Shown: positions 879 to 48,605 of the stretch, one piece after another
Layout of the letters: each line of letters begins with the position of its first letter
How positions within the stretch are numbered: position 1 is the stretch's first letter
Assembly: GCF_003790525.1 (NCBI RefSeq)
Contig: NZ_CP033635.1
Origin: Escherichia coli
Lineage (GTDB): Bacteria > Pseudomonadota > Gammaproteobacteria > Enterobacterales > Enterobacteriaceae
DNA length: 64,000 nt
Direction: 5' to 3' (one strand)
Program-made: the position numbers and the translations under genes
The notes under the pieces: model-generated
What the model was told of the DNA's origin: nothing
Databases searched by the model: none
The model's input: the letters and a program-made list of their open reading frames with translations, nothing else

Positions 879-1997
879 TTAGAACTGATAAACCAGACCT
901 AAAGCGACAATATCATCGGTAGAGATGCCGTTGGCAGCGTAGAAGCTGTCATCTTCATCCAACAGGTTGATTTTATAGTCAACGTAGGTGGACATATTTT
1001 TGTTGAAATAGTAAGTCGCGCCAACATCGGCGTATTTAACCAGATCTTTATCACCGTCGGTACCGACCAAATCCTTGCCTTTAGACATCAGGAAAGAGAC
1101 TGCCGGACGCAGCCCAAAATCGAACTGATACTGCGCAGTAACTTCAAAGTTCTGGGTTTTGTTGGCAATCGTATTTGTTGAATCACCGTAAGGTGTCATG
1201 TTACGCGTTTCAGAATACATGGTCGCCAGGTAGATATTGTTAGCATCGTATTTTGCCCCGGCAGTCCAGGCGTCAGCCTTATCGCCTTTTGCGGTAGAGA
1301 ATTCAGCCTGCTGGTTAGTGCGATCGGAGCTGGTATAGGCGGCACCAAAACTCATGCCCATACCTAAGTCGTAGGTAGTGGAGATGCCAAAACCGTCGCC
1401 ATTGGCGTTCTTAATGTTTCGATCACCACCGTTTGCGGTACCTTCTTGCTCATGGGTGACCTGGTTTTCATTCGCGCCCTGGTACTGTAACGCAAAATTC
1501 AGACCATCAACCAGACCGAAGAAATCAGTATTACGATAGGTTGCTACGCCATTGGCTCGACCGGTCATATAGTTATCGGCTTTGGTATAAGAGTCACCAC
1601 CGAATTCCGGTAGCATATCGGTCCAGCCTTCGATGTCGTACATTACGCCATAATTACGACCATAGTCGAATGAACCCAGGTCACCAAATTTCAGACCGGC
1701 AAAAGCAAGACGAGTCCAGGAATCACCTTTATCACCTTCAGAGCCATTAGCCTGCACGTTATATTCCCACTGGCCATACCCAACCAGTTGATCCGTGATT
1801 TGCGTTTCACCCTTAAAACCAAAACGCACGTAAGTTTGATCACCATCACTATTGGTATTATCAGAAAAATAATGCAGGCCATCAACTTTGCCATACAGAT
1901 CTAATTTGTTGCCGTCTTTATTATAAACTTCGGCTGCATGTGCAGCACCTGCGGCGAGCAGGGCAGGAATTAAAAGTGCCAGAACTTTGCTTTTCAT
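879..1997 (-). CDS. ompN: outer membrane porin N
   Basis: 372-aa ORF with signal peptide [21 protein letters not shown] and general-porin C-terminus ending in F; position between uspF and ydbK as in K-12. Confidence 0.9.
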
Positions 1998-2224
1998 TGA
2001 ATAAATCCTTTAGTTATTTTATTTGCCTTTTATCCCCATTTCGGGGAGTGAAAACATCCTAAAGGAGAAGTTCAGTTAGCCGATAAATATCATTTGTTAC
2101 GCCTTAAGTAAAACCTTAATCAAATAATTCCTCTGAAATGATAATAAGTCTGGTGAATGTATCGAAGATAATACATACAAAATAAAAATTATACTTTTAA
2201 TTTGCTATACGTTATTCTTCGCGG

Positions 2225-2333
2225 GTTATATGCCTTTATTGTCACAGATTTTATTTTCTGTTGGGCCATTGCATTGCCACTGATTTTCCAACATATAAAA
2301 AGACAAGCCCGAACAGTCGTCCGGGCTTTTTTT
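2225..2333 (+). ncRNA. micC: MicC small regulatory RNA (represses ompC)
   Basis: Sequence gttatatgcctttattgtcacagattttattttctg...gcccgaacagtcgtccgggctttttttt matches MicC as I remember it, including the terminator hairpin and T-run; lies in the ompN–ydbK intergenic region. Confidence 0.88.
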
Positions 2334-2362
2334 TAGAATTGGATAATCCTTATCCAGAGCAT

Positions 2363-5300
2363 TTAATCGGTGTTGCTTTTTTCCGCTTTTCCGGCCATTT
2401 GTGCCAGGAAGTCATAGCGTTTTTGCAAATCAGCTGCAGCATCTTTCCATAACTGTTCTGCCACTTCTGGCTGCTGCGAATTCAGACGACGGAAACGTTG
2501 CTCATGAAGTAACGTTTCTTCCAGTGCTTCTGACGGCGGGCGTGAATCCAGTGCCAGCGGCAGTTTGCCTTCATCGGCTCGACGTGGATCAAAGCGATAT
2601 AGCGGCCAGAAGCCGGTAGCAGTGAGTTGGCGCATCTGGTCGTGGCTGAGAGCCAGATCGTAACCATGCTCTTCACACGGGCTATAAGCAATGATCAGCG
2701 ATGGTCCCGGATACGCTTCCGCTTCCTGAATCGCTTTCACCGTCTGGTTCAGCTGCGCGCCGAGAGAAATCTGCGCCACATAAACATGACCGTACATCAT
2801 CATACTGACGCCAAGATCTTTACGCGCTTTACGTTTGCCGTGCTCGCCGAACTTAGTTACTGCACCCAGCGGTGTCGCTTTCGACGCCTGACCACCAGTG
2901 TTGGAATAGCATTGCGTATCCAGCACCAGAATGTTGACGTTTTCCGTCAGGCTCAATACATGATCCAGACCGCCAAAGCCAATATCGTAAGCCCAGCCAT
3001 CGCCACCAATCAGCCAGATTGATTTTTCCACCAGAGCATCTGCGTCACGCAGCAGTTCATGTGCTTCGGCAACATCGTTGAGTTGCTGGCGTAAAGCTGC
3101 AACCTGTTCACGACGAATCTCTGGCGTAGCGTCTGATTTCAACGCAGTCAGTAATTCCGCCGGGATTTTATCGGCAAATTGATCCAGCAGACGCAGCACG
3201 CGGACACGGTGTTGATCGACCGTAAGGCGGAAACCAAGGCCGAATTCGGCGTTATCTTCAAACAGCGAGTTCGCCCATGCCGGTCCACGACCGTTGGCAT
3301 CAGTGGTATATGGTGTGGAGGGCAGGTTACCACCATAAATTGAAGAACAACCCGTAGCGTTAGCGATCAACATCCGATCGCCATAGAGCTGAGTCAGCAA
3401 TTTAATATACGGCGTCTCGCCACAACCGGAGCAAGCACCGGAATATTCAAACAGCGGTGTAATCAGCTGTGATGTACGAATATCAATACGTTCCAGTTTG
3501 CTACGGTCGATTTCTGGCAGGTTGAGGAAGAAATCGTAATTGATTTTCTCTTCTTCGACATGTTCCAGCCGCGACATCATATTGATGGCTTTAATCTCTG
3601 GATTCTGACGGTCTTTCGCCGGGCAAACTTCGACGCACAGGTTACAACCGGTGCAATCTTCCGGAGCCACCTGCAAGACATATTTCTGCCCGCGCATATC
3701 ACGCGATTTCACATCCAGCGAATGCAGGCTGGCAGGGGCGTTTTCCATCGCTTCAGGCGGTACCACTTTTGCGCGAATAGCTGAGTGTGGGCAAGCAGCG
3801 ACGCAGTGGTTACATTGGGTACAGAGTTCCTCTTTCCAGATGGGGATCTCTTCGGCGATATTGCGTTTTTCCCAGCGCGTGGTGCCCATCGGCCAGGTGC
3901 CGTCTGGCGGCAGCGCCGAAACGGGGAGGGCATCACCAAGCCCGGCGAGCATCGCCGCGGTTACGGTTTTCACGAAATCAGGGGCGGCATCGGAAACCAC
4001 TGGCGGTCGATTGGCGCTGTGCGGATTTACTGGTTGCAGCGGAACTTCTTCTACGGATTCACGTGCCAGCGCCAGAGCCTGCCAGTTGCGCTCCACCAGA
4101 TCCTGACCTTTGCTACTGTAACTTTTGGCAATCGCACCCTGCAATTCTGCGAGGGCGCTATCGCCAGGCAGAATTTGCGTCAGATGGAAAAAAGCCATCT
4201 GCATGACGGTATTAATTCGGGCCGCCAGGCCACATTCGCGGGCGATTTTCGCCGCGTTAATCACATAGAAGCGCGCTTTTTTCTGGTTTAACACGGCCTG
4301 AACTTCCTGCGGCAAGCGCGACCACACTTCATCTGCGCTGTACGGCGTGTTGAGCAGGAAAATGCCGCCAGGTTTTAAACGCTCAACCATCTGATATTTG
4401 TCGATAAACTGCAACTGGTGGCAGCCAACAAAATCAGCCTGGGAAATCAGATAAGCGGAACGAATCGGCTGCTCGCTCACGCGAAGGTGAGAAACCGTCA
4501 GGCCGCCCGCCTTTTTGGAGTCGTAAACAAAATAGCCCTGTGCGTACCACGGCGTGGAATTACCGATAATCTTGATATTGTTTTTGGTCGCGGAAACGCT
4601 GCCATCACTACCAAGGCCATAAAACAAGGCTTCAAGTTTCGCCGAGTTTGGCAGGGTGTTTTCCGGCAACGGCAGTGACAGATTGGTCACATCATCGTAA
4701 ATACCAACCGTAAAGCGCGCTTTCGGTTTAGCCGCGTTGAGCTCGGCAAATACCGCCAGTACACAGTCCGGGCCAAATTCTTTGGATGAAAGACCATAGC
4801 GCCCACCAATGACACGGGGCAGGGTTTCGCGCTCGCCATTATTAAAGGCTTCTGCCAGTGCGGTCATCACATCCAGATAGAGCGGTTCTGCCTGGGCACC
4901 GGGTTCTTTGGTTCTGTCCAGTACCGCCACGCTGCGTACGGATCCCGGCAGAGCTTGTAGCAAGTGTTTGGCGGAGAAGGGACGGTACAGGCGAACTTTC
5001 AGCACGCCGACTTTTTCGCCACGGGTTAGCAATTCATCAACCACTTCTTCACAGGTGCCAATGGCTGAGCCCATCAGGATAATCACCCGTTCCGCTTGCG
5101 GATGCCCATAATACTCAAATGGCTGATACTGACGACCTGTCGCGGCAGCGAAATCATTCATCGCCTGTTCAACATGGTCATAGACCGCGTTGTACCAGGG
5201 GTTGGTGGCTTCGCGAGACTGGAAATAAGTGTCAGGATTGGCGGACGTACCGCGGATCACCGGATGTTCCGGGTTGAGCGCCCGGGCGCGATGAGCATCA

Positions 5301-5887
5301 ATTTCGGCCTGCGGCATGAGATCAAGAATAGTGTCATCGGCCAGCGGGACAATTTTATTGATTTCGTGGGACGTGCGGAAACCATCAAAGAAATGAATAA
5401 ATGGCACGCGGCTCTTCAGCGTTGCGATGTGCGAAATGAGAGCAAAGTCTTGCGCTTCCTGGACGTTAGCCGCACACAACATCGCGCAACCCGTCTGGCG
5501 CACCGCCATAACGTCGGAATGATCGCCAAAAATAGAGAGTGCATGTGTGGCAACGGTACGTGCCGCTACATGCAGGACAAACGGTGTGAGTTCGCCTGCC
5601 AGTTTGTACAGCGTCGGGATCATCAGCAGCAAACCCTGCGATGACGTAAACGATGTTGAAAGGGCACCCGTCTGCAAAGCGCCATGCACGGTAGCGATAG
5701 CACCCGCTTCCGACTGCATTTCAACCACGCGTGGTGTGTCTCCCCAAACGTTCTTCAAGCCGTTTCCGGCCCAGGCATCAGCCTGTTCTGCCATCGTGGA
5801 ACTGGGGGTAATAGGGTAGATGGCGATAACTTCACTGGTGCGAAACGCCACCGAAGCAACCGCGCCATTACCGTCAATAGTAATCAT
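2363..5887 (-). CDS. ydbK: pyruvate:flavodoxin/ferredoxin oxidoreductase (PFOR, NifJ-like)
   Basis: 1174-aa ORF; two ferredoxin-type 4Fe-4S motifs visible (CTQCNHCVAACP, CTGCNLCVEVCP); TPP-binding C-terminal region. Confidence 0.93.
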   Translation of the reverse strand: MITIDGNGAVASVAFRTSEVIAIYPITPSSTMAEQADAWAGNGLKNVWGDTPRVVEMQSEAGAIATVHGALQTGALSTSFTSSQGLLLMIPTLYKLAGELTPFVLHVAARTVATHALSIFGDHSDVMAVRQTGCAMLCAANVQEAQDFALISHIATLKSRVPFIHFFDGFRTSHEINKIVPLADDTILDLMPQAEIDAHRARALNPEHPVIRGTSANPDTYFQSREATNPWYNAVYDHVEQAMNDFAAATGRQYQPFEYYGHPQAERVIILMGSAIGTCEEVVDELLTRGEKVGVLKVRLYRPFSAKHLLQALPGSVRSVAVLDRTKEPGAQAEPLYLDVMTALAEAFNNGERETLPRVIGGRYGLSSKEFGPDCVLAVFAELNAAKPKARFTVGIYDDVTNLSLPLPENTLPNSAKLEALFYGLGSDGSVSATKNNIKIIGNSTPWYAQGYFVYDSKKAGGLTVSHLRVSEQPIRSAYLISQADFVGCHQLQFIDKYQMVERLKPGGIFLLNTPYSADEVWSRLPQEVQAVLNQKKARFYVINAAKIARECGLAARINTVMQMAFFHLTQILPGDSALAELQGAIAKSYSSKGQDLVERNWQALALARESVEEVPLQPVNPHSANRPPVVSDAAPDFVKTVTAAMLAGLGDALPVSALPPDGTWPMGTTRWEKRNIAEEIPIWKEELCTQCNHCVAACPHSAIRAKVVPPEAMENAPASLHSLDVKSRDMRGQKYVLQVAPEDCTGCNLCVEVCPAKDRQNPEIKAINMMSRLEHVEEEKINYDFFLNLPEIDRSKLERIDIRTSQLITPLFEYSGACSGCGETPYIKLLTQLYGDRMLIANATGCSSIYGGNLPSTPYTTDANGRGPAWANSLFEDNAEFGLGFRLTVDQHRVRVLRLLDQFADKIPAELLTALKSDATPEIRREQVAALRQQLNDVAEAHELLRDADALVEKSIWLIGGDGWAYDIGFGGLDHVLSLTENVNILVLDTQCYSNTGGQASKATPLGAVTKFGEHGKRKARKDLGVSMMMYGHVYVAQISLGAQLNQTVKAIQEAEAYPGPSLIIAYSPCEEHGYDLALSHDQMRQLTATGFWPLYRFDPRRADEGKLPLALDSRPPSEALEETLLHEQRFRRLNSQQPEVAEQLWKDAAADLQKRYDFLAQMAGKAEKSNTD

Positions 5888-35146: not shown

Positions 35147-35211
35147 AAAGAAAACGCCTGTACTAAAACCGACCCGTGGTACAGGCGAAGAATACGGGTC
35201 TACATCGGAAG
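35147..35211 (-). ncRNA. rydC: RydC small RNA
   Basis: Reverse complement reads cttccgatgtagacccgtattcttcgcctgtaccacgggtcggttttagtacaggcgttttctt, matching RydC as I remember it; lies in the cybB–ydcA intergenic region. Confidence 0.75.
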
Positions 35212-35627: not shown

Positions 35628-35860
<233 letters not shown>

Positions 35861-36174
35861 TGGTCGGGGCCTTCGTCTTTCTGATTCCCGGTTAGCCTGA
35901 AAACAGAAAGTCTCAGGCACCCGTGAGCATCCTATGTGGTTTCCTTAAGGACGAAAATAATCACCTGACGAAATTGCGTGCTGTTTTCCAGAATTTTTCG
36001 TCATTCGGTTTAGCCAGTTTAATCATTCGTTACTCTCTTCATTCCAATGGCATTATTCTTCTCTGCCATAATTGTTGTAAAAATGTGACGCAAAGAGGTT
36101 TTTGGTCGTAAGAAATTACCGTCAAGTGCCGATGACTTTCTATCAGGAGTAAACCTGGAAGAGAGACAACGGTA

Positions 36175-47168: not shown

Positions 47169-48593
47169 TAATGCCGATCAGTTAAGGATCAGTTGACCGA
47201 TCCAGTGGCTGTGTAAGAATCCGGAAACGCTCACTTGTTTCCGGATTTTTTATGCACATTGGACAGGCTCTTGATCTGGTATCCCGTTACGATTCTCTGC
47301 GTAACCCACTGACTTCTCTGGGGGATTACCTCGACCCCGAACTCATCTCTCGTTGCCTTGCCGAATCAGGTACTGTAACGCTACGCAAGCGCCGTCTTCC
47401 CCTCGAAATGATGGTCTGGTGTATTGTTGGCATGGCGCTTGAGCGTAAAGAACCTCTTCACCAGATTGTGAATCGCCTGGACATCATGCTGCCGGGCAAT
47501 CGCCCCTTCGTTGCCCCCAGTGCCGTTATTCAGGCCCGCCAGCGCCTGGGAAGTGAGGCTGTCCGCCGCGTGTTCACGAAAACAGCGCAGCTCTGGCATA
47601 ACGCCACGCCGCATCCGCACTGGTGCGGCCTGACCCTGCTGGCCATCGATGGTGTGTTCTGGCGCACACCGGATACACCAGAGAACGATGCAGCCTTCCC
47701 CCGCCAGACACATGCCGGGAACCCGGCGCTCTACCCGCAGGTCAAAATGGTCTGCCAGATGGAACTGACCAGCCATCTGCTGACGGCTGCAGCCTTCGGC
47801 ACGATGAAGAACAGCGAAAATGAGCTTGCTGAGCAACTTATAGAACAAACCGGCGATAACACTCTGACGTTAATGGATAAAGGTTATTACTCACTGGGAC
47901 TGTTAAATGCCTGGAGCCTGGCGGGAGAACACCGCCACTGGATGATACCTCTCAGAAAGGGAGCGCAATATGAAGAGATCAGAAAACTGGGTAAAGGCGA
48001 TCATCTGGTGAAGCTGAAAACCAGCCCGCAGGCACGAAAAAAGTGGCCGGGACTGGGAAATGAAGTGACAGCCCGCCTGCTGACCGTGACGCGCAAAGGA
48101 AAAGTCTGCCATCTGCTGACGTCGATGACGGACGCCATGCGCTTCCCCGGAGGAGAAATGGCGGATCTGTACAGTCATCGCTGGGAAATCGAACTGGGAT
48201 ACAGGGAGATAAAACAGACGATGCAACTGAGCAGGCTGACGCTGAGAAGTAAAAAACCGGAGCTTGTGGAGCAAGAGCTGTGGGGTGTCTTACTGGCTTA
48301 TAATCTGGTGAGATATCAGATGATTAAAATGGCAGAACATCTGAAAGGTTACTGGCCGAATCAACTGAGTTTCTCAGAATCATGTGGAATGGTGATGAGA
48401 ATGCTGATGACATTGCAGGGCGCTTCACCGGGACGTATACCGGAGCTGATGCGCGATCTTGCAAGTATGGGACAACTTGTGAAATTACCGACAAGAAGGG
48501 AAAGGGCCTTCCCGAGAGTGGTAAAGGAGAGGCCCTGGAAATACCCCACAGCCCCGAAAAAGAGCCAGTCAGTTGCTTAACTGACTGGCATTA
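47169..48593 (+). mobile_element. insertion sequence IS4 (about 1425 bp)
   Basis: Imperfect 18-bp terminal inverted repeats (TAATGCCGATCAGTTAAG left; TAATGCCAGTCAGTTAAG at right, reverse-complemented), a single 442-aa transposase ORF, and flanking 12-bp direct repeats. Confidence 0.92.
47252..48580 (+). CDS. insG: IS4 transposase (DDE family)
   Basis: 442-aa ORF starting [35 protein letters not shown]; contains the IS4-family YREIK motif ([14 protein letters not shown]). Confidence 0.92.
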
Positions 48594-48605
48594 CTGCAAC
48601 GGCAG
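48594..48605. repeat. right copy of 12-bp target-site duplication CTGCAACGGCAG
   Basis: Identical to 47157..47168. Confidence 0.85.

Follow-up and report, generated by a model that had tools for sequence, protein, structure and literature searches.

The small RNA MicC of Escherichia coli, 109 nt long, pairs directly with the 5' untranslated region of ompC and so represses OmpC; its gene is read in the direction opposite to that of ompN, a quiescent porin gene (PMC5745476, citing Chen et al. 2004). MicC also lowers OmpC in the ExPEC strain UTI89, further targets have been proposed, and a relevance to ExPEC fitness has been reported (bioRxiv 10.64898/2026.07.27.741068, a 2026 preprint). The reference copy is the ncRNA gene micC (b4427, Rfam family RF00121) of K-12 MG1655, annotated at 1437121-1437231 between ompN (b1377, minus strand) and ydbK (b1378, minus strand). 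A comparable system is MicF, which like MicC is Hfq-dependent, is encoded divergently from a porin gene and represses a different porin by pairing near the ribosome-binding site (PMC5745476). MicF differs in that it belongs to an unrelated sequence family and has ompF as its target, with a gene that adjoins ompC, about 0.9 Mb away in K-12.

The DNA analysed here, referred to as the window, is a stretch of 64,000 nucleotides of E. coli contig NZ_CP033635.1, of which positions 1-49932 are 99.992% identical to E. coli SMS-3-5. An initial annotation, made from the letters alone, had recognized MicC at 2225-2333 and proposed a search with the Rfam MicC model as a check. When the whole window was scanned with Rfam 15, positions 2222-2342 on the plus strand matched RF00121 with 125.3 bits (E = 2e-19), well above the gathering score of 90 and over model positions 1-123 of 123, i.e. 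the full model, which is far beyond chance. Because the model takes in a few flanking bases, the RNA itself is shorter than this match. We consider it about 98% probable that 2225-2334 on the plus strand represents micC on an SMS-3-5-like chromosome of E. coli, with its own promoter, with pairing to the ompC leader and with repression of OmpC as its function. The elements of the RNA are the following.

2225-2334, plus strand: micC gene for the MicC sRNA of 109-110 nt (RF00121 match, identity to K-12 b4427), with the 3' end inside the U-run 2327-2334
2225-2240, plus strand: 5' seed, nt 1-16, GUUAUAUGCCUUUAUU, the exact Watson-Crick complement of the ompC leader from -30 to -15
2262-2296, plus strand: middle stem-loop GUUGGG ... 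UCCAAC with a variable loop (Rfam consensus helix, pair counts)
2305-2334, plus strand: Rho-independent terminator, the expected Hfq-binding 3' module (ViennaRNA fold, Rfam, pair counts)

In an alignment with b4427, the RNA of the window is the same from +1 through the terminator stem, with the same seed and the same neighbours, and the sole difference within it is a run of 8 instead of 9 T at the tail. Over the whole intergenic region, two differences were found in 366 bases, the other being a T for G at 2219, and the K-12 locus differs furthermore in its ompN allele. The RNA opens with GTTATATGCCTTTATTGTCACAG and reads GTTATATGCCTTTATTGTCACAG...AAGCCCGAACAGTCGTCCGGGCTTTTTTTT at 2225-2334; the hairpin AAGCCCGAACAGTCGTCCGGGCTT closes the sequence of 2225-2333, and the T-run 2327-2334 comes after the hairpin. 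The start of K-12 micC falls on window position 2225, exactly where the initial annotation had placed it, while the K-12 end falls on 2334, the last T of the run. With an end at 2333 the RNA has the 109 nt that have been published, one base less than in RefSeq; both positions lie inside the U-tail, of which the real 3' end is likely heterogeneous. Model score, K-12 identity, seed-target complementarity, structure and synteny, which are all the sequence-level features of MicC that were tested, were each found in this copy. It is an already known gene in its known place, an ordinary textbook copy that holds no new biology and departs in nothing from the known micC gene.

The pairing with the target is explicit. 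The leader of K-12 ompC from -30 to -15, directly 5' of the GAGGG Shine-Dalgarno sequence, pairs over 16 nt with MicC nt 1-16, all by Watson-Crick pairs, and the 5' seed recognized earlier is thereby borne out. This was computed against the K-12 leader, as ompC lies outside the window, and not against the strain's own copy. Of the 5370 E. coli genomes in which a 120-nt segment of the ompC leader is present, 5358 show 99% identity or more in this segment, and the target is therefore almost certainly present in the window strain as well. Within the window, no other occurrence of the 16-mer complementary to the seed was found. An RNAduplex run with 40 nt of MicC over-extended the duplex, and one in 1000 shuffles did as well, a shuffle control that should be taken as a rough guide; the firm pairing result is the exact 16-nt complement rather than this run.

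The RNA has the anatomy of MicC, consisting of the seed, a U-rich linker, the middle stem-loop with its variable loop, a G+C-rich hairpin and 8 U. This layout is standard for an Hfq-dependent trans-acting sRNA. The terminator, which had also been noticed beforehand, is confirmed both by folding and by comparison: it has seven G+C-rich pairs, a 1x1 A·C mismatch, two more pairs and a 4-nt loop before the U-run, and its helix is 99.6% paired across 32 sequences. With the Rfam structure placed on a plain MAFFT alignment of these 32 sequences, which come from Escherichia, Salmonella, Citrobacter, Superficieibacter, Pseudocitrobacter and others, 93.3% of the cells are paired, as compared to 26.9-55.6% when the partners are slid; five pairs show two-sided changes, and none of 500 shuffles reached the observed covariation score. 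RNAalifold, applied to the same plain alignment, recovered the terminator and missed the middle helix, as the alignment is poor in the variable middle. An explicit count of pairs for the Rfam middle helix bore it out, with 84% (83.8%) of cells paired and two-sided changes at four of its six pairs in the unrefined 32-sequence alignment.

In most minimum-energy folds of the orthologues some 15 nucleotides at the 5' end stay unpaired and the middle helix is formed. The minimum-energy fold of the window copy lacks this helix and pairs part of the seed with nt 67-73; this fold has a 1.3% share of the ensemble and is not that of most orthologues. For the whole RNA, a folding z of -2.14 was obtained, with 8 of 200 shuffles folding at least as well, which is a modest signal. 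Modest values are usual for an sRNA with an open seed.

The gene is widespread in the species. A 109-nt query gave matches in 4910 of 5426 complete E. coli genomes, with at least 95% identity in 4908 of them (at least 99% in 3709 genomes and 95-99% in 1199). As to the micC region, 14 of the 5426 genomes are without any match, five matches lie on plasmid-labelled records, and a few genomes have two copies. Beneath the micC matches RefSeq lists 'none' or only nifJ, and it follows that the gene is left unannotated by PGAP in most E. coli genomes.

For a wider comparison, an exact-match scan with the 21-nt seed in one genome per species yielded 30 loci, from Escherichia, Salmonella, Citrobacter, Superficieibacter, Pseudocitrobacter and some metagenome-assembled genomes. 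Since the loci were retrieved with the seed 21-mer, conservation of the seed in this set is circular; outside the seed, the loci vary in the middle of the RNA and hardly at all in the terminator. Nine of 12 rescanned loci score above the Rfam MicC threshold, and those below it (Superficieibacter, UBA5654 and Pseudocitrobacter) are the most divergent of the 12. The porin-micC-ydbK order is kept in the loci with enough flanking sequence, with ydbK convergent downstream and an OmpN-like porin gene divergent upstream; in the two Salmonella loci no porin gene adjoins micC.

The window carries the K-12-type allele of micC, and a second allele occurs at the same locus in strains RIVM_C039629 and ETEC4068 (L002 2626-2730 and L003 3903-4007, respectively). 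Its first 23 nt and its terminator are those of the window, except that ETEC4068 (L003) differs at one base of the terminator's 3' arm; it is set apart from the window by a diverged middle with a 5-nt deletion and by a diverged upstream region from -65 to -13. Both examples pass the Rfam threshold, with 105.7-107.5 bits. On the basis of identity bands, and with two examples read, the frequency of this allele among complete E. coli genomes would be about 9%: 484 records fall at 80-90% identity with a 301-nt query, and 516 genomes are without a megablast match to the RNA. The differences are ordinary population variation. In ETEC4068 (L003 3185-4608), an IS1 element separates ompN from micC, inserted either within the promoter region of micC or upstream of it, and an IS200C element with an STnc490 RNA directly follows micC, before nifJ.

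The neighbouring genes place the locus between ompN and ydbK, in agreement with the initial annotation, with the qualification that the porin allele is divergent. Three features are relevant here.

879-1997, minus strand: porin gene at the ompN position, divergent from micC and adjoining uspF (NCBIfam OmpC-subfamily porin, 568.5 bits)
2363-5887, minus strand: ydbK/nifJ, pyruvate:flavodoxin oxidoreductase, convergent with micC (TIGR02176, 1633.6 bits; 99.5% identical to K-12 YdbK)
2295-2328, minus strand: the micC hairpin read on this strand, with a T-rich tail, GTCTTTTTAT (terminator scan: 2328-2305, 10 pairs)

The gene order uspF-porin-micC-nifJ is found in both SMS-3-5 and K-12. The porin encoded at 879-1997 is 82% identical to K-12 OmpN, with both ends identical and the differences and indels located in internal blocks. 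The porins that occupy the same position in Escherichia whittamii and two other Escherichia species are closer to it, at 95-96.5% identity, and the SMS-3-5 porin at the ompN position is named 'ompC' by PGAP. The intergenic region and ydbK beside this divergent porin gene are at least 99% K-12-like. From these identities, the porin-micC-ydbK locus looks like a mosaic.

The convergent orientation of ydbK raises the question whether the region is merely the 3' end and terminator of the ydbK/nifJ transcript, its resemblance to MicC being without function in the window strain. The hairpin 2305-2328 was indeed called as a terminator, and on the minus strand only, 35 nt past the ydbK stop codon (2363-2365). 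The same hairpin on the plus strand was missed as a consequence of the scan rule (loop of at most 8), since the A·C mismatch present there is a G·T wobble on the minus strand; it is shown by both ViennaRNA and Rfam. A terminator for ydbK accounts for just about 35 nt, however, and leaves unexplained the invariant seed 80 nt further on, the conserved -10 sequence and the full-length Rfam match, in an RNA that is identical to an experimentally characterized K-12 gene. We therefore regard a purely ydbK-related origin as highly improbable. The two roles are compatible, as the terminator looks bidirectional: it is probably common to the convergent micC and ydbK genes.

The remaining alternative is that the interval encodes a small protein, instead of or besides a non-coding RNA. 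The initial annotation held that no ORF call explains the interval; this calls for a minor correction, since two mechanical ORFs overlap it, of which the shorter one is not kept open across orthologues.

2202-2336, plus strand: mechanical ORF of 44 aa with a TTG start (ORF list)
2261-2452, plus strand: mechanical ORF of 63 aa with a TTG start (ORF list)

That the 44-aa ORF at 2202-2336 (plus strand) is translated has next to no probability and was rejected, since its frame, although mechanically present here and open in 8 of 32 orthologues, has stop codons within the RNA in the other 24 and is shifted to unrelated C-terminal peptides in the second E. coli allele and in strain E69, while its TTG start precedes the conserved start of transcription by 23 nt, with no Shine-Dalgarno-like sequence seen in the 20 nt before the TTG, and the pattern of conservation (invariant seed, variable middle with compensatory changes, invariant hairpin) fits an RNA rather than codons.

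With the interval read as micC, the sequence in front of it can be examined for promoter elements. An upstream alignment of 160 nt, covering 29 sequences from six genera, brings out two elements.

2213-2218, plus strand: putative -10 hexamer TATTCT, at -12 to -7 from 2225 (conservation and spacing)
2179-2194, plus strand: near-invariant block AAAATAAAAATTATAC, at -46 to -31 (conserved in 29 sequences)

In the hexamer, the T, the A and the final T are invariant in all 29 sequences. Position 2219 (-6), just beyond it, is T in the window and also in the second E. coli allele, and G in K-12 and most other species. The block AAAATAAAAATTATAC may be either a regulator site or a weak -35 element (TTATAC) that follows an A-tract and is separated from the hexamer by an 18-bp spacer. 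A scan with the sigma-70 consensus called no promoter on the plus strand at its threshold. Conservation of the putative -10 sequence and of the upstream block supports position 2225, the G of GUUAUAUG, as the probable real start, and would fit with independent transcription of micC.

Between the porin gene and micC, further invariant or nearly invariant blocks occur across the six genera, viz. TGTTAC at 2095-2100, TTAAGTAAAACCTTAA at about 2104-2119 and GAAT at 2155-2158. The conserved blocks within 2086-2194, including AAAATAAAAATTATAC, are candidates for sites at which micC, ompN or both are regulated. It is around the conserved upstream sites, and in the middle of the RNA, that the two E. 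coli alleles of micC differ. It is conceivable, though we consider it unlikely, that AAAATAAAAATTATAC and the further boxes form the operator of a regulator that co-controls micC and ompN, and that the two alleles are regulated differently. H-NS and sigma-E have been described as negative, probably indirect, influences, and the sigma-E core motif is absent from this intergenic region (PMC5745476). A sigma-E promoter for micC was considered and dropped in view of the lack of a sigma-E motif in the region according to that source.

The Rfam 15 scan gave three matches above the gathering scores in the whole window. Besides MicC, these are two known E. coli features, the sRNA RydC at 35148-35211 (minus strand, 92.5 bits) and, at 35771-35922 (minus strand, 105 bits), the antisense RNA sok, which belongs to the type I toxin-antitoxin locus hokB/sokB. 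Directly after ydbL, at the ydbA position, the SMS-3-5 annotation has an intact autotransporter gene of 5955 nt, which corresponds to about 11760-17720 of the window. In K-12, ydbA is presumably interrupted by insertion sequences, with the fea/tynA/paa genes in the same interval; if this is right, it would explain the spacing of 33 kb between micC and rydC in the window. At the position of about 47250-48600, the nearly identical record of SMS-3-5 has ydcO broken into two pseudogene fragments by an IS4 transposase gene.

Taken as a working gene, micC would be transcribed from its own promoter, away from the ompN-type porin gene, up to the Rho-independent terminator, giving an RNA of about 109 nt that would keep a single-stranded 5' end. 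Together with the chaperone Hfq, this 5' end would pair with the leader of the ompC mRNA just upstream of the ribosome-binding site, which would block translation initiation and lower the level of the OmpC porin. For the window copy, expression, Hfq dependence and repression of OmpC are taken from the literature; identity with the K-12 RNA makes Hfq binding and repression very likely. The finding is of value mainly as a correct annotation, the gene being one that is usually missed by automated pipelines. Since MicC controls OmpC levels, the gene is of relevance to outer-membrane permeability and antibiotic uptake.
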